Below, piece after piece: positions 2,733 through 33,664 of a stretch of DNA of 36,611 nt; position 1 is the first letter of the stretch, and each line of letters begins with the position of its first letter. Under the pieces are notes generated by a model that was not told the DNA's origin, searched no databases, and saw only the letters and a program-made list of their open reading frames with translations. This DNA is from a virus (lineage: Duplodnaviria; Heunggongvirae; Uroviricota; Caudoviricetes), in IMG/VR virus record IMGVR_UViG_2537561930_000005. One strand, written 5' to 3'. The translations under genes and the position numbers were made by a program.

Positions 2733-3110
2733 GGTATGCACTCCGTTTAATTGGTCGTGCTACCACCAGAGTTCTCACGCTCTTGAATGGTGGTAGCCCA
2801 AGCGGGGGTGAGAATACCGGCAAACGAAGAAACCGGCCTGACCGAAGTCAGCCCCGCCTGAGCCACCATAAATCGGATATGCGCAGGTATATACACACAA
2901 AAAAACACGCTGGCGCGTGTTGTGCGCTTCGTTTATCCGGGTTCTCACGCCCGGCTGCGGAATTTGCCGCAGCGGAGTAACTTTACCGTCAAAACGACGC
3001 ACACGTCAATAATTTGCAAAGACATTTTACCCCGTGACCAGTCACGGGGACAGGTGTTTTTATAGTTTGCTTGAACGAGTGATCAGAAGTTGATCGTTAA
3101 TCAAAGGCCA

Positions 3111-5972: not shown

Positions 5973-6164
5973 TTACTCCCCGTTCACCGAAAAATCACGA
6001 TAGAAACGTTTCCACATACGATAAGTCTGCGCGAGTTGTTCACCACGAAACATCGCCTTCCTGGCCTTCATGTTTTCCTTGTGAGACTTTCGATCTATGA
6101 ACCAAAACCATTGCTGGAACACACAAAGCAAGAGACACAAAGATAATATCCACTGATTACCCAT
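5973..6164 (-). CDS. Small membrane protein (63 aa, MGNQWILSLCLLLCVFQQWFWFI...)
   Basis: ATG at 6164 lies 2 nt upstream of the repA TAA stop (ATGGGTAA), suggesting translational coupling. One clear hydrophobic helix. Confidence 0.3.
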   Translation of the reverse strand: MGNQWILSLCLLLCVFQQWFWFIDRKSHKENMKARKAMFRGEQLAQTYRMWKRFYRDFSVNGE

Positions 6165-9100
6165 AGAAAGCGCCCTGCTCTTCGTAGCTGCATGGGCTAT
6201 TCCCGGTAATGTATTCACGTAACCGCCGCAGTTCATTGCTGGATAAGTGATCCATGAACTCTGTGAGGTACAGAGATGCAAACGTCATAGCTATGCTGGC
6301 TGATGACCATGATGACATAGTGGCCAGCTCCTCACCGGAAAGCGCACTCATCGCCCAGGACTCAGGTACAACCACTGGCAACACAGCCAAAGCCTCAGAA
6401 ATTACTGAATGAGGGGCGTTTTGAACCTGCTCGTTTGTGGATCGCGTTTTATCATCCATATATATATTGAGATCCAAATCGCGATCCATTTCGATGGCGG
6501 TCTTCTCGGCTTTACGCGTTTTCAGGGTTAGGCCATCTTTCTGACGCTGAGCAAGAATATCCAGCATAAATGCCGCTGATTCAGGCTCAACAAAACGCAA
6601 GGTTGGACGCTTATCGCCGTCTCTGCCGCGACGTTTACCTGTTTTAAGGCCAAGAGAGTCGCAAATGTTTTTAAACAACGCTTCCGGCACTTTAGGCTTC
6701 CCTTTTGGCGTCATAAAACCACCAATGTGCAGAACGTTATTCAACAGGTCACGGCGTTCGGCTGTCATGAGGTTATCTCGAGCAAATTTGAGACGCTCCT
6801 GAGTCGCCTCGCCGGTCATAGTCTCAGGGTTGATACCGCAGTCGATAAAGTACTGCCGGAGAGTTGCTGATTTAAGCGCATAGAAACCGCGCGCCCCGAC
6901 TTCAACAGTAGGAGTAGCTTTTACCTTGTGATCGATTATTCCAGGGAATTTAGTTTTAAAGACATCATCAGCCTGCTCGCGAGTCATCGCGGTCACTACA
7001 AAATATTGCCACTGTCCCGCCTGACGGTATGCGTAGGTAAAATTGATGGCTGCTTCTTCCCGGTCGTAACGACGAGCTGTTACCTCATCTAAAAGCATTG
7101 TTTCATAGCGGCGAACTTTGTCTCGAGCACCATCGAAATAGAATTTCAGCGTGCCTTCTTCAACCGGTAGTTTCAGTTCGTTTTCAATATCCCAGCGGAC
7201 AAGTTTTGCCTGTTCTTCAAGCGTCAGCGCGCGTTTTTTTAGCAGTTCTTCACGCTCTGATTCTTGTGGAGTTTCTGTATTGAGATGCAGATCCAGTGTC
7301 TGTTCCCACACAATATCCCGCGCTTCTTTACGCAGCTCTTTACCGATATCATTCGCAGCATAATCGGTGGCCAGCGGCGATACCTTATAACCGTCGCTGT
7401 GCATGATGCAGATCATGTTGCTGGCGTAGTCGTTACGCGCAGTCGCTTCAATAGCGGCTGCTTTAATTTTCATCCTGGTAAAGTCGGTATTGGCCACCCC
7501 CATTGATATACGGTCGCCATCGAAAACGACATCCGTCAGTTCACCGTTCATACCTGCGGTAGCAAGCAATGCCTGGGCGAATGCTCGTTCTATTTTTTGC
7601 GGGTCAGTTTCACGTTTTGCACGAGCTTTATCAAAGCCGATAATAAATTCTTTTGCTGTACGGTCGCGGCGTAGCATTTGCACTGCGTCGCTGGGTACAA
7701 CTTCACCACAGAACATGCCGAAATGACGGTCAAAATGTTTTTGCTCAATCGACACGCCGGATGAAATAGACGGGCTATAAATCAGGCCGTCGTATTTTTT
7801 GACCATCTTTTTCGGTTGATTGGTAAATGCTTCAACTTCTGGCTCTGGTTTGTTTTTCTGGTTTACACACAGAAATTTCTTACCAGGAAAATGCATTCTC
7901 AGGGTGGCTGTCACATCTTCTGCAAAGGTGGAGCTGTCGGTGGCCAACATGATTTTTTCGCCATCCGATACAGCTTTCACCACCTCGGTCATGATGCGAT
8001 CTTTTTCTGTATAAAAAACCCGGATTGGCTCACCTGTTTCGCGGTTGCGAACATCAACAGGTAATTCAATTACGTGGATCTGCAGCCATGCCGGTAAACC
8101 TAGTTCTTCACGGCGTTTCATAGCCAGTTCAGCCAGGTCAACCAGCAGATCATTCGCATCAGCATCCACCATGATTGGGTGTTGTTCTGTTCTGGCCAGC
8201 GCGTCAATTAGCGTATTGAATACAGCCACCGGGTTTTCCATAGCCCGACCGGAAAGAACGGCACGTAGCCCTTGTGTGGCCTCGTCAAAGCCAAAATAGT
8301 CGTGCTGGCGCATCAACGGTTGCCAGCAGTTTTTAACAATCGAGTTTATGCAGATGGTCAGTTTACTGGCGTATGGAGCCATTTCCTGATAGCCAGGATC
8401 CTGATAGTGCAGGATATCGGCTTTTACACCTTTTCCTTCTGTCATCATTTCCCACAGGCCGCCAATAAGGGAGACACGGTGAGCAACAGAGATACCACGT
8501 TCTGAGCTATGCATTAACGGTCGTAACAATCCAGTAGATTTGCCGGAACCCATACCAGCACGGACGATGACTATCCCCTGTAGTGATTGCACGTACTTCA
8601 GGACATCATCGGTCATTACCGAAGTTTCAAAACGCTTATAGGTGATATGTTGAGGGCGTTTATTGGGATCAGTTATGCGTTCGCTGAAAGAGCGCGGAGC
8701 CTGGGCAATACGGCACTTTTTATTCAGGCGACGGGCAATGTGGTCTTTTACCGTAGCGCGATAGATATTTTCCAGTCCCATTTCACGCAGAACGATGCAG
8801 AACATGTTAAATAAATCTGACGGACTGTTAGGAACCGGACAGGTTAGCATGCCAATATCCACCGCTCTCAGCAGCTCTTTGGCAAAAGTACGACGGTTAT
8901 CCCGCTTAATTGTCTTCAGGCGGTTGAGCGTCAGAGATAGCAAATCAGTACCAGTTTTCAGGCGGTTTGCTGTTGCAAATAGTTGACGTGCTGTTTCACG
9001 AAGTCCACGTAGTTTGTGCAGGTCGTTGAAGTCACTGCACTCCATTTGCGGATCGTCTTCAAAAGTTGGATAGACGCAGCGGACATCGTTGAATTTCGAT

Positions 9101-10152
9101 AAGATTTCATAGCCAGTCCGCAGGCCGGTATTCCCTTTTCCTTCTGTGGCAGATTTCCGGTCATTATCCAGTGCGCAGGTGATTTTTGCCGCCGGGTACA
9201 TGTTTACCAGTTGTTCCACAACATGAACCATGTTGTTAGCGGATACAGCGACAACCACAGCGTCAAAGCGTTTATCTTTTTTCGTGGCAAGCCAGATGGA
9301 TGCACCAGTAGCAAAACCTTCTGTAACAGCGATGTTTTGCGCCCCTTTCAGCTCACCGATAACAAAGCAGGCACCGACGAAATCGCCGCTGGTTACTGCG
9401 CTGGTCTGGTATTTTCCACCTTGTTTGTCGATTCGCTGCCAACCCACAATACGACCATCGTAACGACCGTCCAGGTGAGCCAGAGGGATAGCCATATACG
9501 TGGTTGGCCCCCTGCTCCATTTTGCGCTGTCGTGACTGGTCACGCGACGCACATCACACGAATTAAAAACGTCACGAATACCTTTTTTAATCGCATATGG
9601 CCATGAGCCGTCTTCTGCAGGAGCATGTTCCCACGCGCTGTGAAATGCCAGCCATCCCAGCAAACGTTCATGGTCAATTTGGTTGTTTTTCAGGTCATTA
9701 ATTCGTTTTTGTTCTTCACGGCGACGACGTGCTTCGGCCTGACGTTCTATTCTTGCCCGTTCTTCTTCCGGTTGTGCGACCACGGTCGCATTATTCCGTT
9801 GTTGCTCACGGCGATATTCAGAAAACAGGAAGGAGAAACCGCTCCATGAGCCAGCATCGCTGCCTTTATGGACGAAGTTAATGAACGGGTAATCAATCCC
9901 TTTGCTGTGTTCCAGCCGGGAGTAAATTTCTACGCGTCCTTTGAGGCTCTTCTCGAGAGCTTCTGGAGATGTTTTATTGTATGAAGAGTAACGCTCAACA
10001 CCCCCGCGAGGGTTGAGTTGGATGTTGTCGGAACAGGCAGGCCAGTTGATACCAGCCATCTGTGCCAGCTCGGTTAGTTCATCCCGTGCTGCTTCAATTA
10101 GCGAGAACGGATCGCTGCCAAAGCGATCCGCATAGAAATCGTTTAATGTCAT
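6157..10152 (-). CDS. repA: Replication protein RepA, primase-helicase fusion, 1331 aa
   Basis: Giant ORF with Walker A (GMGSGKST) helicase region and N-terminal primase-like region. Size and position (divergent from telN, adjacent to cB) match N15 repA, which I recall is ~1324 aa. Confidence 0.8.
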   Translation of the reverse strand: MTLNDFYADRFGSDPFSLIEAARDELTELAQMAGINWPACSDNIQLNPRGGVERYSSYNKTSPEALEKSLKGRVEIYSRLEHSKGIDYPFINFVHKGSDAGSWSGFSFLFSEYRREQQRNNATVVAQPEEERARIERQAEARRRREEQKRINDLKNNQIDHERLLGWLAFHSAWEHAPAEDGSWPYAIKKGIRDVFNSCDVRRVTSHDSAKWSRGPTTYMAIPLAHLDGRYDGRIVGWQRIDKQGGKYQTSAVTSGDFVGACFVIGELKGAQNIAVTEGFATGASIWLATKKDKRFDAVVVAVSANNMVHVVEQLVNMYPAAKITCALDNDRKSATEGKGNTGLRTGYEILSKFNDVRCVYPTFEDDPQMECSDFNDLHKLRGLRETARQLFATANRLKTGTDLLSLTLNRLKTIKRDNRRTFAKELLRAVDIGMLTCPVPNSPSDLFNMFCIVLREMGLENIYRATVKDHIARRLNKKCRIAQAPRSFSERITDPNKRPQHITYKRFETSVMTDDVLKYVQSLQGIVIVRAGMGSGKSTGLLRPLMHSSERGISVAHRVSLIGGLWEMMTEGKGVKADILHYQDPGYQEMAPYASKLTICINSIVKNCWQPLMRQHDYFGFDEATQGLRAVLSGRAMENPVAVFNTLIDALARTEQHPIMVDADANDLLVDLAELAMKRREELGLPAWLQIHVIELPVDVRNRETGEPIRVFYTEKDRIMTEVVKAVSDGEKIMLATDSSTFAEDVTATLRMHFPGKKFLCVNQKNKPEPEVEAFTNQPKKMVKKYDGLIYSPSISSGVSIEQKHFDRHFGMFCGEVVPSDAVQMLRRDRTAKEFIIGFDKARAKRETDPQKIERAFAQALLATAGMNGELTDVVFDGDRISMGVANTDFTRMKIKAAAIEATARNDYASNMICIMHSDGYKVSPLATDYAANDIGKELRKEARDIVWEQTLDLHLNTETPQESEREELLKKRALTLEEQAKLVRWDIENELKLPVEEGTLKFYFDGARDKVRRYETMLLDEVTARRYDREEAAINFTYAYRQAGQWQYFVVTAMTREQADDVFKTKFPGIIDHKVKATPTVEVGARGFYALKSATLRQYFIDCGINPETMTGEATQERLKFARDNLMTAERRDLLNNVLHIGGFMTPKGKPKVPEALFKNICDSLGLKTGKRRGRDGDKRPTLRFVEPESAAFMLDILAQRQKDGLTLKTRKAEKTAIEMDRDLDLNIYMDDKTRSTNEQVQNAPHSVISEALAVLPVVVPESWAMSALSGEELATMSSWSSASIAMTFASLYLTEFMDHLSSNELRRLREYITGNSPCSYEEQGAFYG
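6436..6490. other. Candidate internal replication origin element within the 3' part of repA
   Basis: Inverted repeat GGATCGCG (6439-6446) / CGCGATCC (6480-6487) flanking an AT-rich spacer containing TATATATAT; three GATC sites within ~50 bp. Confidence 0.3.
9775..9790. other. sopC-like partition (centromere) site copy 1, TGCGACCACGGTCGCA, inside repA
   Basis: 16-bp element with 7-bp inverted arms around AC. Exact 16-mer is repeated at 12218 and 16512. Differs at 2 positions from the F SopB-binding core TGGGACCACGGTCCCA as I recall it. Confidence 0.6.
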
Positions 10153-11085: not shown

Positions 11086-11307
11086 ATGAAACCAGAAGAA
11101 CTTATTCGCCACTTTGGCAGTGTTGAAAAAGCAGCGGCAGGGGTAGGTGTAACACCCGGAGCTGTTTACCAATGGTTAACCGCTGGAGAGATTCCTTCAT
11201 TGCGGCAAAGCGATATTGAAGTTCGTACTGCTTACAAGCTGAAGAGTGACTTTACAACTCGGCGGGTAAAGCAGTCGATTAAGGAGAGTCGTAAGCGTGG
11301 AGCTTGA
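11086..11307 (+). CDS. cro: Cro-like repressor (HTH), 73 aa
   Basis: HTH FGSVEKAAAGVGVTPGAVYQWL; divergent from cB. Possibly leaderless, as the -10 lies immediately upstream. Start codon uncertain. Confidence 0.6.
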   Translation: MKPEELIRHFGSVEKAAAGVGVTPGAVYQWLTAGEIPSLRQSDIEVRTAYKLKSDFTTRRVKQSIKESRKRGA

Positions 11308-12007
11308 GTATATACGCAGCTGCGTCTCTACGGCATTGGCTGATGTTCATTATCGCCAGCGTGGCATTCTGGAGGTCCAGCTTGAGCAGATGCGTCTCGG
11401 TAGATCAGGACGGTTTAACAATAAACCAGTCCGGTCAATCAGTGTGGGGGATGATAACTCATACGAAGTGTCCGTTCCCGCTGAGCCGGTTAGATTCCAC
11501 CAGGGGAAAACATTTAAACAATCATCAATGTTGCTCACTGATATTGATTTTCAGAGCGCCAGCTGGCGCAGGGCTATTTGTCAGTTGAATAACGAGGAAT
11601 CAGCCTGGCTTTATTATTGCTACGGATGCAAGCCTGACTACAACAATGATGTGATTGTTTGTCAGTGGTTATGGCTTGATTTTCTGGTTGCTCATTCGGG
11701 GGGCGGCTTTAAAAAAATGAAGGCCTCCACGAAAAAAGCCATGCGGAAATTGATTTATTACGCGGCACAGCAGGTTAAATCAGAACTTACGTGTGCTGAG
11801 GCAGTTGATGAGAGAGAACAGGACAGGCATCTGAGTTTTCTACTGAATATATCTATTGATAGCTGGAGACAAGATTATAAAGAACGCTGGCTTTTAATTA
11901 AGTCGCGATGTCTGAGCTTAAATCGAACCGCATTATTAAATGCGGCGGAGAAGCGCAGTGAAATCATCAAACGCCATCGGGCAGGAAGTGCCATTCTGCC
12001 TTTGTAA
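11297..12007 (+). CDS. Putative late-gene regulator (Q-like antiterminator?), 236 aa
   Basis: GTG start with RBS AAGGAGAG, overlapping the cro stop. Position matches N15 Q by recollection only; no diagnostic motif verified. Confidence 0.35.
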   Translation: MELEYIRSCVSTALADVHYRQRGILEVQLEQMRLGRSGRFNNKPVRSISVGDDNSYEVSVPAEPVRFHQGKTFKQSSMLLTDIDFQSASWRRAICQLNNEESAWLYYCYGCKPDYNNDVIVCQWLWLDFLVAHSGGGFKKMKASTKKAMRKLIYYAAQQVKSELTCAEAVDEREQDRHLSFLLNISIDSWRQDYKERWLLIKSRCLSLNRTALLNAAEKRSEIIKRHRAGSAILPL

Positions 12008-12260
12008 ACAAGTTATGTTCAGGAAACCGTCGAAGCCAGAATTAAGGTATTCGGGGGTAAGAAATGAATATGTCATCTGGTGTCCAACTTGCGGTTACAG
12101 GACACGACCCGATAGTAATAAGCAGTCTGTAATTGCCGATTGGTATTTATCAAATCAGCCAGGTAATAAGCATATAGAAAATCTTTGGATTAAGCGTTAT
12201 CTGGAAATTAGAGAGGGTGCGACCACGGTCGCACAAGAAAATGAAAATAACGCCATTTAA
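11940..12260 (+). CDS. Small zinc-ribbon protein (CxC...CPTCG), possibly Lar-like
   Basis: Cys pairs CLC and CPTCGY. The ATG at 11940 overlaps the Q-like gene; alternative start at 12015. Confidence 0.3.
   Translation: MRRRSAVKSSNAIGQEVPFCLCKQVMFRKPSKPELRYSGVRNEYVIWCPTCGYRTRPDSNKQSVIADWYLSNQPGNKHIENLWIKRYLEIREGATTVAQENENNAI
12218..12233. other. sopC-like partition site copy 2 (TGCGACCACGGTCGCA)
   Basis: Exact repeat of the 16-mer at 9775; lies within the 3' end of the zinc-ribbon ORF. Confidence 0.6.
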
Positions 12261-15278: not shown

Positions 15279-15566
15279 TCAATAGACGGCATTAATATTA
15301 ATCGTTGCACCGCATGCTTGGGCATATTTTGATAAAGTTTTCATGCTTGCCCCTAAAGGATTGCTTTCCAGGCGGCTGATAGCTGACGGGCGCAATCCCA
15401 TTCGTTCAGCCAGAGCTGACTTCGTTAAACCTGCTCTTTCCCTCATTTCGTATAACATTTCGACCATCTCCAGCTCTTTATCGGCCTCTTCATATCCTTT
15501 GATGGCTTCTGGAGTGTTGAGAAGTTTTTCTTTTACTTCGTTAAACGGGATGCCTTTCGCTTTCAT
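15279..15566 (-). CDS. HTH_XRE antitoxin (HigA-like), 95 aa
   Basis: HTH LTKSALAERMGLRPSAISRLE. ATG overlaps the toxin stop (TGATG); RBS AAGGAG lies within the toxin 3' end. Confidence 0.7.
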   Translation of the reverse strand: MKAKGIPFNEVKEKLLNTPEAIKGYEEADKELEMVEMLYEMRERAGLTKSALAERMGLRPSAISRLESNPLGASMKTLSKYAQACGATININAVY

Positions 15567-15877
15567 CAGTTCATCTCCTTCAGGCGAGTTCTGGCGATTT
15601 CGATAGCCTTCACCGGTGTTTTCTGTGTCTTTTTTACAAATGCATGCAATAGATAAATTTCGTTACCAGTCGCGTAGGCGTACAGCGTTCTTGCGATGTT
15701 TTTATCCCCTACTCGTAGTTCAAAAAGCCCTCCACCTATTACACGGCTATGGGGCATCTTCAGTTTGTTGCCTTCTTTCTCCAGTCGCTCAATTAATCTG
15801 GTCATGCGACCTCGCAAATCATCTGGTAGTTCAAGCAGTTCATCCAGTGCTGCAGGGTGGGTTATCACGTTAAACAT
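15566..15877 (-). CDS. RelE/ParE-superfamily toxin, HigB / Gp49-like, 103 aa
   Basis: Size, toxin-first order and sequence character match the phage Gp49-like (HigB-type) killer family, which was named after N15 gp49. Confidence 0.65.
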   Translation of the reverse strand: MFNVITHPAALDELLELPDDLRGRMTRLIERLEKEGNKLKMPHSRVIGGGLFELRVGDKNIARTLYAYATGNEIYLLHAFVKKTQKTPVKAIEIARTRLKEMN

Positions 15878-16277: not shown

Positions 16278-16505
16278 ATGAATATTAATGAAATTCGTGG
16301 AAATATGACTGAAGCGGCCCTGAGTGTGGAATGTGTTATGCGTGGATACCCACGCATTTCCCTGAAAGAGTTAAGCGAAGCCTGTTTTTTGAGTCAGGCT
16401 GCCGTTGAATTTATCATCGAACAGATGATCTGTTTTGGGATTGCAAAGCGTAGCGGGTCTGGTCGATATTCTTTGACCGATGAATATAAGCAGGCAACTT
16501 TCTAA
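16278..16505 (+). CDS. Hypothetical small protein (75 aa)
   Basis: RBS GAGAGG; ORF only. Confidence 0.4.
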   Translation: MNINEIRGNMTEAALSVECVMRGYPRISLKELSEACFLSQAAVEFIIEQMICFGIAKRSGSGRYSLTDEYKQATF

Positions 16506-16511
16506 AAACTG

Positions 16512-16527
16512 TGCGACCACGGTCGCA
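16512..16527. other. sopC-like partition site copy 3 (TGCGACCACGGTCGCA)
   Basis: Exact 16-mer, intergenic, 7 nt after the stop of the upstream gene. Confidence 0.6.
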
Positions 16528-16614
16528 CAGCACAAAAACGAAAAAGCTTGGCAAAATGACGGTTTTTAGTTATTGTTTTGTTAAGTTGGGTTTTTTGTAC
16601 CCAACAGCTAACAA

Positions 16615-16637
16615 GCCGCCTTTATGGCGGTTTTTTT
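16615..16637 (+). terminator. Small rho-independent terminator (GCCGCC-TTTAT-GGCGG + T7)
   Basis: Direct read; position upstream of the late genes suggests a tR'-type terminator read through by antitermination. Confidence 0.45.
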
Positions 16638-16654
16638 GTGCCTGAAAAGTGGGC

Positions 16655-16680
16655 GCAGGACAAGTTGCAGCTTGTCCTGC
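16655..16680 (+). promoter_or_regulatory. Perfect 10-bp stem-loop GCAGGACAAG-TTGCAG-CTTGTCCTGC
   Basis: Direct read; no T-run follows, so not a classic terminator. Confidence 0.4.
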
Positions 16681-16772
16681 GGTCAACCCATGCCAGAGCT
16701 ATAGGCTGAACCTAAAGCCCACCCGCGATGCGCATCGCCGGGTTAGCTTACCCAGGCAAAAAAATAATAGCT

Positions 16773-17849
16773 ATGTTCAAAACCACTAATATTCATGGCG
16801 CGCAACTCGTTTGCGCAGATTCTCTGCAATTTATCAAAACCATCCCTGATAACTCGGTCAATTTGATTGCAACAGACCCACCATACTTCGGCGTAAAGGC
16901 TAACGCATGGGATAACCAGTGGGATAGCGATGCTGACTTTTTGGGGTGGATTGACGAATTTTTGGCAGAATTTTGGCGGATATTGGCCCCTAATGGCAGC
17001 CTGTATATGTTTACCGGCTCTCGCCTTGCGTCAAAAATTGAATTATTAACTCGCGACCGTTTCAATGTTCTGAACCATATCATTTGGGCTAAACCCAGTG
17101 GTATGTGGCGCGGTTGTCATAAAGAAAGTTTAAGGGCTTATTTTCCTGCTACTGAAAGAATATTATTTGCAGAGCATTACGGCGCGTCAGGTTATGCGAA
17201 AGGTCAGTCAGGTTATGCTTCAAAATGTGCAGATTTAAGAAAAAATATTTTTTCTCCACTAATTGATGCTTTTTCGCTGGCTCGCCGTCAGTTAGATATA
17301 TCAGCCGCAGACATTAATTCAGCGACAGGAAAGCAGATGTGTTCACACTGGTTTTCTTATTCGCAGTGGCGGCTTCCATCATTAATTGATTTTAATAAAC
17401 TATGCGAATTATTTCGCAGGAAGGCAGATTCACTCGGTGTCCAGTGTCCATATCCTTTTAATGTTGATTATTCAGAACATGAAAAGCGTTATAGCGATCT
17501 GAAATTACATTATGAGGAAGTAAAGAAGCAGTATGATGATTTGAAGGTGCAGTATGAAAATTTACGCCGTCCATTTCATGTTACTGCTGATGTACCTTAT
17601 ACCGATGTATGGGAGTTTCCTCCTGTGCAATATTATCCTGGCAAGCACCCATGTGAAAAACCTGCAGCGATGATGGAACATATTATAAAGAGTAGTTCAC
17701 GCCCCGGAGATATCGTTGCCGATTTCTTTATGGGATCAGGCTCAACTATTAAAGCTGCGCTGAAGTTAGGACGTCAGGCAATAGGTATTGAGATTGAGAG
17801 CGAACGTTATCTTCAGACAGTTGATGAAGTGAAAAAGTTATTTGAGTAA
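16773..17849 (+). CDS. Orphan DNA methyltransferase (N6-adenine/N4-cytosine class, DPPY motif), ~358 aa
   Basis: Motif IV DPPY followed later by motif I FFMGSGST. No adjacent restriction endonuclease gene. Start uncertain (16728 or 16773). Confidence 0.75.
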   Translation: MFKTTNIHGAQLVCADSLQFIKTIPDNSVNLIATDPPYFGVKANAWDNQWDSDADFLGWIDEFLAEFWRILAPNGSLYMFTGSRLASKIELLTRDRFNVLNHIIWAKPSGMWRGCHKESLRAYFPATERILFAEHYGASGYAKGQSGYASKCADLRKNIFSPLIDAFSLARRQLDISAADINSATGKQMCSHWFSYSQWRLPSLIDFNKLCELFRRKADSLGVQCPYPFNVDYSEHEKRYSDLKLHYEEVKKQYDDLKVQYENLRRPFHVTADVPYTDVWEFPPVQYYPGKHPCEKPAAMMEHIIKSSSRPGDIVADFFMGSGSTIKAALKLGRQAIGIEIESERYLQTVDEVKKLFE

Positions 17850-17944
17850 CTGGAGAATATATTCCCCTGCCGTTTTTGGTAGGGGTTATTTTTGCCATAT
17901 AGTTTCCAAGCCGAAACCTCAGCAACTATTGCGAGGTAAGAGAT

Positions 17945-31116: not shown

Positions 31117-33664
31117 ACCGGTAGGCGATCTGGTCGTTGATTTGAGTCTGGATGCGGCCAGATTTGACGAGCAGATGGCCAGAGTCAGGCGTCATTTTTC
31201 CGGTACGGAAAGTGATGCGAAAAAAACAGCGACAGTCGTTGAACAGTCGATGAACCGGCAGGCGCTGGCTGCACAGAAAGCGGGAATTTCCGTCGGGCAG
31301 TATAAAGCCGCCATGCGTATGCTGCCTGCGCAGTTCACTGACGTGGCCACGCAGCTTGCAGGCGGGCAAAGTCCGTGGCTGATCCTGCTGCAACAGGGGG
31401 GTCAGGTGAAGGACTCCTTCGGCGGGATGATCCCCATGTTCCGGGGGCTTGCCGGTGCGATCACCCTGCCGATGGTGGGGGCCACCTCGCTGGCGGTGGC
31501 GACCGGAGCGCTGGCGTATGCCTGGTATCAGGGCAACTCAACCCTGTCCGATTTCAACAAAACGCTGGTCCTTTCCGGCAATCAGGCGGGACTGACGGCA
31601 GATCGTATGCTGGTCCTGTCCAAAGCCGGGCAGGCGGCAGGGCTGACGTTTAACCAGACCAGCGAGTCACTCAGCGCACTGGTTAAGGCGGGGGTAAGCG
31701 GTGAGGCTCAGATTGCGTCCATCAGCCAGAGTGTGGCGCGTTTCTCCTCTGCATCCGGCGTGGAGGTGGACAAGGTCGCTGAAGCCTTCGGGAAGCTGAC
31801 CACAGACCCGACGTCGGGGCTGACGGCGATGGCACGCCAGTTCCATAACGTGACGGCGGAGCAGATTGCGTATGTTGCTCAGTTGCAGCGTTCCGGCGAT
31901 GAAGCCGGGGCATTGCAGGCGGCGAACGAGGCCGCAACGAAAGGGTTTGATGACCAGACCCGACGCCTGAAAGAGAACATGGGCACGCTGGAGACCTGGG
32001 CAGACAGGACAGCGCGGGCATTCAAATCCATGTGGGATGCGGTGCTGGATATTGGTCGTCCTGATACCGCGCAGGAGATGCTGATTAAGGCAGAGGCTGC
32101 GTTTAAGAAAGCAGACGACATCTGGAATCTGCGCAAGGATGATTATTTTGTTAACGATGAAGCGCGGGCGCGTTACTGGGATGATCGTGAAAAGGCCCGT
32201 CTTGCGCTTGAAGCCGCCCGAAAGAAGGCTGAGCAGCAGACTCAACAGGACAAAAATGCGCAGCAGCAGAGCGATACCGAAGCGTCACGGCTGAAATATA
32301 CCGAAGAGGCGCAGAAGGCTTACGAACGCCTGCAGACGCCGCTGGAGAAATATACCGCCCGTCAGGAAGAACTGAACAAGGCACTGAAAGACGGGAAAAT
32401 CCTGCAGGCGGATTACAACACGCTGATGGCGGCGGCGAAAAAGGATTATGAAGCGACGCTGAAAAAGCCGAAAGGCGTGAAGGTGTCTGCGGGCGATCGT
32501 CAGGAAGACAGTGCTCATGCTGCCCTGCTGACGCTTCAGGCAGAACTCCGGACGCTGGAGAAGCATGCCGGAGCGAATGAGAAAATCAGCCAGCAGCGCC
32601 GGGATTTGTGGAAGGCGGAGAGTCAGTTTGCGGTACTGGAGGAGGCGGCACAACGTCGCCAGCTGTCCGCACAGGAGAAATCCCTGCTGGCGCATAAAGA
32701 TGAGACACTGGAGTACAAGCGCCAGCTGGCTGCACTTGGCGATAAGGTCACGTATCAGGAGCGCCTGAATGCGCTGGCGCAGCAGGCGGATAAATTCGCA
32801 CAGCAGCAACGGGCAAAACGGGCCGCCATTGAGGCGAAAAGCCGGGGGCTGACTGACCGGCAGGCAGAACGGGAAGCCACAGAACAGCGCCTGAAGGAAC
32901 AGTATGGCGATAATCCTCTGGCGCTGAATAACGTCATGTCAGAGCAGAAAAAGACCTGGGCGGCTGAAGACCAGCTTCGCGGGAGCTGGATGGCAGGCCT
33001 GAAGTCCGGCTGGAGTGAGTGGGAAGAGAGCGCCACGGACAGTATGTCGCAGGTTAAAAGTGCAGCCACGCAGACCTTTGATGGTATTGCGCAGAATATG
33101 GCGGCGATGCTGACCGGCAGTGAGCAGAACTGGCGCAGCTTCACCCGTTCCGTGCTGTCCATGATGACAGAAATTCTGCTTAAACAGGCAATGGTGGGGA
33201 TTGTCGGGAGTATCGGCAGCGCCATTGGCGGGGCTGTTGGTGGCGGCGCATCCGCGTCAGGCGGTACAGCCATTCAGGCCGCTGCGGCGAAATTCCATTT
33301 TGCAACCGGAGGATTTACGGGAACCGGCGGCAAATATGAGCCAGCGGGGATTGTTCACCGTGGTGAGTTTGTCTTCACGAAGGAGGCAACCAGCCGGATT
33401 GGCGTGGGGAATCTTTACCGGCTGATGCGCGGCTATGCCACCGGCGGTTATGTCGGTACACCGGGCAGCATGGCAGACAGCCGGTCGCAGGCGTCCGGGA
33501 CGTTTGAGCAGAATAACCATGTGGTGATTAACAACGACGGCACGAACGGGCAGATAGGTCCGGCTGCTCTGAAGGCGGTGTATGACATGGCCCGCAAGGG
33601 TGCCCGTGATGAAATTCAGACACAGATGCGTGATGGTGGCCTGTTCTCCGGAGGTGGACGATGA
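31109..33664 (+). CDS. H: Tail tape-measure protein H (851 aa)
   Basis: MAEPVGDLVVDLSLDAARF...; size about that of lambda gpH (853 aa). Confidence 0.95.
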   Translation: MAEPVGDLVVDLSLDAARFDEQMARVRRHFSGTESDAKKTATVVEQSMNRQALAAQKAGISVGQYKAAMRMLPAQFTDVATQLAGGQSPWLILLQQGGQVKDSFGGMIPMFRGLAGAITLPMVGATSLAVATGALAYAWYQGNSTLSDFNKTLVLSGNQAGLTADRMLVLSKAGQAAGLTFNQTSESLSALVKAGVSGEAQIASISQSVARFSSASGVEVDKVAEAFGKLTTDPTSGLTAMARQFHNVTAEQIAYVAQLQRSGDEAGALQAANEAATKGFDDQTRRLKENMGTLETWADRTARAFKSMWDAVLDIGRPDTAQEMLIKAEAAFKKADDIWNLRKDDYFVNDEARARYWDDREKARLALEAARKKAEQQTQQDKNAQQQSDTEASRLKYTEEAQKAYERLQTPLEKYTARQEELNKALKDGKILQADYNTLMAAAKKDYEATLKKPKGVKVSAGDRQEDSAHAALLTLQAELRTLEKHAGANEKISQQRRDLWKAESQFAVLEEAAQRRQLSAQEKSLLAHKDETLEYKRQLAALGDKVTYQERLNALAQQADKFAQQQRAKRAAIEAKSRGLTDRQAEREATEQRLKEQYGDNPLALNNVMSEQKKTWAAEDQLRGSWMAGLKSGWSEWEESATDSMSQVKSAATQTFDGIAQNMAAMLTGSEQNWRSFTRSVLSMMTEILLKQAMVGIVGSIGSAIGGAVGGGASASGGTAIQAAAAKFHFATGGFTGTGGKYEPAGIVHRGEFVFTKEATSRIGVGNLYRLMRGYATGGYVGTPGSMADSRSQASGTFEQNNHVVINNDGTNGQIGPAALKAVYDMARKGARDEIQTQMRDGGLFSGGGR

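Follow-up and report, generated by a model that had tools for sequence, protein, structure and literature searches.

Probable late-operon control region of an N15-like phage-plasmid, with a Sop-type inverted repeat beside its promoter

The non-coding gap at 16506-16772 of the DNA analyzed here (a stretch of 36,611 nucleotides, referred to as the window) very probably represents the region that controls the late operon in a linear plasmid-prophage of the N15 type, orthologous to the IR3-p52-terminator region of N15. The arrangement is already known, as it is annotated in N15 and phiKO2 and was reportedly tested genetically in N15. The main finding alone matters little, as what it recovers, in a close relative, is the known N15 combination of late promoter, terminator and centromere. 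The survival of one inverted repeat (IR) by the promoter and another by the antiterminator gene Q, through changes in centromere specificity and gene distances, gives some support to the N15 model and fits a published proposal that links the partition system to late gene control throughout the family, beyond N15. The segment at 16638-16772 is the only part of the region that could lead to something new.

Genome context of the gap

The region and its flanks were 99.4% identical to the deposited E. coli Ravinvirus genomes YDC107_1 and PhiR46_1 and 78% identical to positions 41021-41512 of the phage-plasmid N15; by sequence, the window is an N15-like (Ravinvirus) phage-plasmid. The initial annotation had described about 265 bp of non-coding DNA, and the gap was found to span 267 bp, from the end of the gp51 homolog at 16505 to the methylase ATG at 16773, a start codon kept across all relatives. 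It aligned end to end with the intergenic region between N15 genes 51 and 52, of which it is the ortholog on this sequence evidence. Gene order around the gap matched N15, with the gap between the gp51 and gp52 (methylase) homologs and before the lysis genes:

83-1984: protelomerase gene
6157-10152, minus strand: repA
between repA and Q: a cB-like repressor gene, then cro
11297-12007, + strand: Q antiterminator gene (PF06323; 66% identical to N15 gp40)
between Q and the gp50 homolog: a series of small genes together with a toxin-antitoxin pair
directly before the gap: gp50 and gp51 homologs
16773-17849, + strand: first late gene, a DNA N6/N4 methyltransferase (N15 gp52 homolog; PF01555)
after the methylase: holin, lysozyme and Rz genes, then terminase genes

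The location upstream of the methyltransferase and lysis genes, as initially annotated, was therefore correct. No sopAB genes were found within the 36.6-kb window. The PhiR46_1 genome encodes ParA and ParB, the latter 75.6% identical to N15 SopB.

Several features outside the gap were recorded. Just upstream of the gp50 and gp51 homologs, a leftward gene pair (15279-15877, minus strand) encodes an HTH protein (a homolog of N15 gp48) together with a gp49 homolog, for which the Klebsiella counterpart carries a RelE/ParE toxin annotation; the pair is probably a plasmid-addiction module. At 2786-2986 (minus strand), Rfam matches at gathering level to C4 antisense RNA (82 bits), isrK (68 bits) and the c4 a1/b1 targets (49 bits) identified a P1/N15-type anti-immunity RNA locus adjoining the protelomerase end of the window. 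The deposited YDC107_1 record (CP025712; L308/L309) carries a mirrored duplication of the protelomerase-repA arm, is without sopAB, and seems to have been assembled across the hairpin telomere. In the N15 GenBank record (AF064539), gene 52 starts at 41621, and the ATG that is conserved and annotated in relatives corresponds to 41387 (41387-41389; 1867-1869 in relative L002); the annotated N15 start is probably 234 nt too far downstream.

Relatives were gathered from phage, plasmid and viral-contig collections, yielding 52 unique versions of the region, and the 24 distinct elements that carried Q on the same fragment are the basis of the IR and Q spacing counts given below. A first pattern for the viral collection was too loose, as most of its 120 hits were due to chance (including the GC-rich contigs L110 and L127), and a tighter pattern recovered 67 true loci. 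In the plasmid collection, 210 records matched. In genome contigs, the pattern ACCCATGCC...GCCCA...GATKGCGC returned mostly conserved coding sequence, probably dxs by translation, and one true relative only.

Putative promoter, terminators and inverted repeats

The elements of the control region, along with the further terminator and the further IRs of the window, were as follows:

16509-16530, no strand assigned: palindrome with core GTGCGACCACGGTCGCAC at 16511-16528, by sequence a putative SopB-type centromere IR and ortholog of N15 IR3
16548-16576, + strand: putative late promoter, by orthology the counterpart of N15 p52 (-35 TTGGCA at 16548-16553, 17-nt spacer, -10 TATTGT at 16571-16576)
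16582-16590, + strand: pause-like element TAAGTTGGG, a -10-like hexamer followed by GGG, 5 nt past the -10
16585-16591 with 16599-16605, + strand: hairpin 1 (GTTGGGT/ACCCAAC; 7 bp, 7-nt loop, -10.4 kcal/mol)
16613-16637, + strand: intrinsic terminator, tR' analogue (AAGCCGCC/GGCGGTTT stem, 5-nt loop, U7)
17864-17895, + strand: second intrinsic terminator, between methylase and holin (9-bp stem and T-run; N15 counterpart annotated at 42490-42510)
9774-9791: Sop-type IR within repA, with one mismatch, equivalent to N15 IR1
12217-12234, no strand assigned: Sop-type IR 213 nt past the Q stop codon, equivalent to N15 IR2

The assignment of these elements relied on orthologous DNA. GenBank features of N15 place a -35 at 41162-41167, a -10 at 41185-41190 and a rho-independent terminator at 41229-41250, between genes 51 and 52, and the phiKO2 record labels the same positions as 'putative plasmid partitioning site', 'putative late promoter' and 'terminator'. 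The window's TTGGCA-17-TATTGT aligned with the annotated -35 and -10 of both phages, and this orthology points to a promoter at 16548-16576. The -10, TATTGT, is weak, and a promoter scan scored the site at only 9/12. A common layout was present in all 52 unique relatives, consisting of a TTGnnn -35, a 17-nt spacer, a TAnnnT -10, a 5-nt T-rich gap and TA(A/T)G(T/C)TGG(G/C); the sequence of the spacer was not conserved between clades. The transcript is predicted to start near 16583.

The core of the pause-like element, TA(A/T)G(T/C)TGG, was likewise found in 52 of 52 relatives. Its setting in the window (TATTGT-TTTGT-TAAGTT-GGGTT) parallels the layout of lambda pR' (TAAATT-TGACTC-AACGAT-GGGTT), in which the second hexamer is the sigma-70-dependent pause element and the loading point of Q. 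By this analogy, TAAGTTGGG may act as a lambda-pR'-like pause element, with the pause expected about 16 nt downstream of the start. Sequences downstream of Q in Gifsy-1, PhiR47_2 and phiES15, which have distant phage-82-type Q genes, were unrelated, and the pause-element reading therefore gains no support from them.

Hairpin 1 overlaps the pause-like element TAAGTTGGG and had been noted initially as GTTGGG...CCCAAC at 16585-16605, which agrees with the 7-bp stem obtained here. Its 5' arm was fixed among relatives and its 3' arm varied, always with retention of pairing on the + strand: U-A changed to U.G, G-C to G.U and, in one compensatory case, G-C to C-G. As the variation retained + strand pairing, hairpin 1 is by sequence a conserved + strand RNA structure, which would begin about 3 nt into the late transcript. 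A role as a 5'-end stabilizer would be the simplest reading. In one relative (L272, IMGVR_UViG_3300036846_000707), the IR, promoter, hairpin 1 and terminator 5' arm were replaced at ca. 6215-6380 by foreign DNA that resembles the end of a putative insertion sequence with a short hairpin; the leader downstream was intact, and the late promoter of this relative is probably disabled.

The small U7-tailed terminator of the initial annotation was also recovered. Its stem (16613-16633) has 8 bp, including 5 G-C pairs, and is followed by T7 at 16631-16637, with a folding energy of -12.9 kcal/mol; among 21 sequences the stem was invariant, with 100% of cells paired. The terminated RNA is predicted to be approximately 55 nt long, given a start near 16583. 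A 2.5-kb stretch contained four terminator-like sites, with 2.6 expected. A lone hairpin or terminator-like site is therefore unremarkable, and it is the conservation and covariation across relatives that indicated that the ones described here are real. With the second terminator at 17864-17895, late transcripts have a minimum of two terminators to get past on the way to the lysis genes.

The product of the Q gene, which lies 4.5 kb upstream of the late promoter, matched PF06323 at E = 2.7e-84, its only Pfam match. Its N15 counterpart, gp40, is named 'late transcription activator' in GenBank. The Q of the window was approximately 29% identical to the Q protein of Gifsy-1, whose record states similarity to phage 82 Q. 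Judged by sequence, the window's Q is not of the lambda Q family, and its nearest characterized relatives are phage-82-like. The solved structures compared with it included no relative, nor any phage Q protein, that of lambda included.

The palindrome upstream of the promoter had been annotated initially as the third copy of a sopC-like site, a description that held. Its arms, GTGCGACC-NN-GGTCGCAC, matched exactly at 16511-16528, immediately upstream of the late promoter, and the palindrome as a whole stops 19 nt before the -35. Three Sop-type copies were present in the window (9774, 12217 and 16511) against 0.01 expected by chance, and none of 100 shuffled windows contained three. In N15, the IRs are located at 33479 (in repA), 35930 (183 nt beyond the Q analogue, gene 40), 41124 (IR3) and 45561; the first three have equivalents in the window, and no equivalent of IR4 was found in its 36.6 kb. 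The N15 IR3 oligonucleotide printed in Table 4 of PMC7205306 matches the N15 alignment row at the column of the window palindrome. YDC107_1 has two additional IR copies past its lysis genes (12352 and 12572 in L001).

Among relatives, the IR sequences fell into three classes: GTGCGACC, comprising N15, phiKO2 and this window; TTGGGACC, comprising Yersinia PY54-like and other elements; and GTGGGACC, comprising relative L250. The IR was located 102-146 nt upstream of the terminator 3' arm in all 24 distinct relatives, at mostly exactly 114 nt, and 22 of the 24 had a second IR 213-293 nt after the Q stop codon, while Q and the terminator were 2.4-6.1 kb apart and Q identity spanned 28-100%. That the IR stays beside the promoter despite a changed centromere specificity argues against chance juxtaposition. 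In L250 (IMGVR_UViG_3300036791_000702), a divergent relative with a Q only 35% identical, the third centromere variant, CGTGGGACC-NN-GGTCCCACG, occurs at 901, 2907 and 5482, that is, in or near repA, after Q and before the late promoter.

The palindrome at 16511 could instead serve partition only, its closeness to the late promoter being incidental, as the IR sites of N15 are dispersed, functional centromeres (PMC7205306) and one copy in the window lies inside repA. We consider this improbable, as the IR is found beside the promoter in three specificity classes, with a partner nearly always next to Q, and as the IR-terminator spacing is nearly fixed while the flanking sequence and the distance to Q vary. 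The genetics of N15 reportedly also speak against a role in partition only, as mutants of IR2 or IR3 were delayed. The conservation of the IR, terminator and Q layout over 24 relatives and three IR classes instead supported the interpretation offered in the initial annotation, namely a region of the late promoter and antitermination that also holds a centromere site; the same elements are annotated in the orthologous DNA of N15 and phiKO2, and the interpretation was in that sense already known. The promoter hexamers, the pause-like element and the identification of hairpin 1 as a + strand RNA structure are additions to it.

From these elements we infer how the region would operate in this phage, including the start, the pause, the action of Q and an effect of SopB. 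Transcription would start near 16583 from the sigma-70 promoter TTGGCA-17-TATTGT, and TAAGTTGGG, in the first transcribed bases, would hold the sigma-70-bound polymerase in a promoter-proximal pause, as at lambda pR'. The phage-82-type Q, made from the gene 4.5 kb upstream, would then engage the paused polymerase. Without Q, transcription would terminate at the U7 (16637), leaving an RNA of approximately 55 nt composed of hairpin 1 and the terminator hairpin. With Q, the polymerase would read through the terminators at 16637 and 17864-17895 and into the methylase, lysis and structural genes. The putative SopB palindrome upstream of the -35 and its twin near Q might in turn couple the partition system to late expression.

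The structured segment between terminator and methylase

Downstream of the terminator, the following features were distinguished:

16638-16772, no strand assigned: conserved structured segment from the terminator to the methylase ATG, defined by conservation and covariation
16649-16653 with 16687-16691: P2 helix
16654-16681: stem-loop 2, 11-12 bp
16722-16742: P4 helix, with a GCGC loop
16744-16748 (TAGCT) with 16769-16773 (AGCTA): last hairpin
16645-16755, minus strand: candidate leftward small RNA (-10-like TAAGCT at 16745-16754, start near 16738, hairpin followed by U4)

Stem-loop 2 corresponds to the perfect 10-bp stem-loop placed at 16655-16680 in the initial annotation; the structure was present, and its true extent is 11-12 bp at 16654-16681. 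The segment is as conserved as the flanking genes, yet non-coding, and contains the invariant blocks TGGGCGC, ACCCATGCC, GCCCA and TGCGC, with a block also written as (A/G)CCCATGCC. Its stems have wholly different sequences between clades and retained complementarity. With a MAFFT alignment built without reference to structure, covariation scored 0.199, compared with 0.108 in shuffles, and none of 500 shuffles scored as high; cells changed on both sides numbered 49, compared with 18 in shuffles, and 10 of the 12 pairs of stem-loop 2 changed on both sides. Folding z-scores of the leader were -4.9 (+ strand) and -4.7 (minus strand), and the wider region gave z = -6.1. RNAalifold produced a poor consensus on the MAFFT alignments because stem-loop 2 was misaligned between clades, and it was replaced by folds of each sequence together with a column-consensus structure.

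Searches of Rfam with the leader (16638-16772) on both strands returned no family at or near its gathering threshold. The best match overlapping the leader was ctRNA_pGA1 (22.9 bits, gathering 45), and AgrB (29.7 bits, gathering 40) matched upstream, covering the start of the late RNA and the terminator. A tRNA and tmRNA search found none.

Coding within part of the gap, by a methylase start at the in-frame ATG at 16728 or by a small ORF at 16649-16789, would offer another explanation of the conservation. The ORF at 16728-17849 is open, and the N15 clade shares the in-frame ATG; however, this ATG is missing in Klebsiella-type relatives and out of frame in Yersinia-type relatives. As it is not conserved beyond the E. 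coli/N15 clade, the methylase start was placed at 16773, the position to which the annotated starts of homologs correspond. Indels of 1-2 nt separate the clades in this segment, and substitutions in the stems were compensatory, not synonymous, making a coding role very improbable. Within the methylase gene itself, Klebsiella- and Yersinia-type relatives (L003, L007, L008 and others) showed unusually strong nucleotide conservation in the codons of the first approximately 30 nt. These codons form CACTGT-N9-ACAGTG, with T5 following on the minus strand, which looks like a weak leftward terminator; this motif is absent from the window's clade.

The non-coding segment may be an undescribed RNA element of N15-like telomere phages, and the evidence on which strand it would be read from conflicts. 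On the + strand, the non-Watson-Crick cells of stem-loop 2 were C.A or A.C in 28 cases and G.U in only 7, 6 of which were at the loop-closing pair. The minus strand had the higher pairing in this stem-loop (91.2%, compared with 82.5% on the + strand), and it folded P2 and stem-loop 2 better, as an uninterrupted stem, in 22 of 25 clade representatives. The wobble pattern of stem-loop 2 thus fits the minus strand better, whereas hairpin 1 and P2, the latter with G.U wobbles on the + strand in three lineages, favor the + strand.

The segment 16638-16772 may act as a + strand cis-acting leader in the late mRNA, involved in its processing or stability or in the translational control of the methylase, and we give this reading somewhat less than an even chance. 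P2 and stem-loop 2 could form an RNase III processing site or a stabilizing site, and P4 together with the last hairpin might block access to the methylase's weak translation start. In addition to the + strand fold, the covariation and the P2 wobbles given above, such a leader would be in keeping with the lack of a Shine-Dalgarno sequence at a normal distance from the methylase ATG and with the AAGG of Klebsiella-type relatives, which is paired within a GCCT/AGGC hairpin. The mostly C.A and A.C mismatches of stem-loop 2 and the better minus-strand fold of the hairpin argue against it, as do the outer helices, which differ between clades.

The boldest version of the RNA element, which we regard as doubtful, is a leftward small RNA acting as a lock or timer. 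A minus-strand hairpin followed by a U run, together with a conserved -10-like block, suggested an RNA of approximately 95 nt, running from about 16738 to 16645 and ending at P2/stem-loop 2 and the U run, with its U4 supplied by the + strand A-tract at 16645-16648. The -10-like block, located approximately 53 nt upstream of the P2/stem-loop 2 hairpin, reads TGGGTAAGCT in the E. coli/N15 clade and takes the extended -10 form TG(A/G/T)TAGGCT in 5 of 6 clades, including the divergent L250. U3-5 follows the hairpin on the minus strand in nearly all clades, and the mismatches of stem-loop 2 turn into G.U on that strand. An invariant, unpaired GGCAUGGG, with UGGGC, is flanked by P4 as the 5' hairpin and by the 3' hairpin, a layout usual for small RNAs. 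Such an RNA would converge on the late promoter and stand back to back with the + strand terminator, ending a few bases away from it.

Against this candidate, inspection by eye for a minus-strand promoter near the methylase ATG found no conserved -35/-10 pair and only the -10-like block at 16745-16754 of note; no -35 accompanies the block, and the extended -10 TG is absent from the window's own clade. The U run is short, with UU alone in some clades, the P2 wobbles favor the + strand, and neither strand matched Rfam. The folding advantage is partly compositional, as shuffled minus-strand sequences also folded 4.6 kcal/mol better and z-scores were equal. The cis-acting leader and the leftward RNA are not mutually exclusive. 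The leftward RNA might act in trans, or it might base-pair with late transcripts that have read through and so serve as a safety lock for the late and lysis genes. If it exists, its pairing with Q-modified read-through transcripts would subject the methylase and lysis genes to a lock or timer at the RNA level, and the segment would hold an unrecognized riboregulator or small RNA guarding the lysis genes in a prophage that coexists with its host as a plasmid.

Comparison with known systems

The closest known system is that of N15, with which the window shares the order of IR, -35, -10, terminator and leader between gp51 and gp52 homologs, the 78% identity reported above, an identical IR core and -35, and a Q gene located kilobases upstream with an IR beside it. 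Ravin, Rech and Lane are said to have shown experimentally, in 2008, the N15 promoter p52, the antiterminator activity of gp40 with Q-dependent read-through, and the terminators. Mutations of N15 IR2 or IR3 in the same work reportedly delayed late transcription and lysis. The window differs from N15 at the center of the IR (AC, compared with AT in N15) and at the -10 (TATTGT, compared with TATCTT). Hairpin 1 is a perfect 7 bp in the window, whereas it contains G.U pairs in N15. The window's Q is only 66% identical to that of N15, the SopB of the closest complete relative only about 76%, and IR4 is without a counterpart in the window.

The region also resembles lambda pR'-qut-tR', in which a promoter is followed after 5-6 nt by a -10-like hexamer with GGGTT and by an intrinsic terminator that yields a short RNA, all before the lysis genes. 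The pause-like TAAGTT-GGG stands 5 nt past the window's -10 and lambda's AACGAT-GGG stands 6 nt past its own, a resemblance in sequence only. The window's Q (PF06323) is phage-82-like, in contrast to the lambda Q family, and its gene is 4.5 kb from the promoter (2.4-6.1 kb in relatives), whereas the two are adjacent in lambda. The terminated RNA is predicted at approximately 55 nt, compared with the 194 nt of the lambda 6S RNA. In the window, moreover, a partition-protein site abuts the promoter, and the first gene encodes a methylase.

The sites of the window, which are putative, and sopC of F are alike in being binding palindromes of the SopB family, and N15 SopB is 49% identical to F SopB (PMC7205306). 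The F centromere consists of tandem 43-bp repeats at one locus, whereas the window has single, dispersed palindromes of 18-22 bp at regulatory positions. The late regions of phiKO2 and of Yersinia PY54/P840 have the same layout as the window. The Yersinia type has a distinct IR variant, TTGGGACC-NN-GGTCCCAA, at the corresponding position, and in the TTGGGACC class the IR lies approximately 9 nt from the -35, compared with 19 nt in the window. The leader stems of phiKO2 and the Yersinia phages have entirely different sequences from those of the window and are still complementary.
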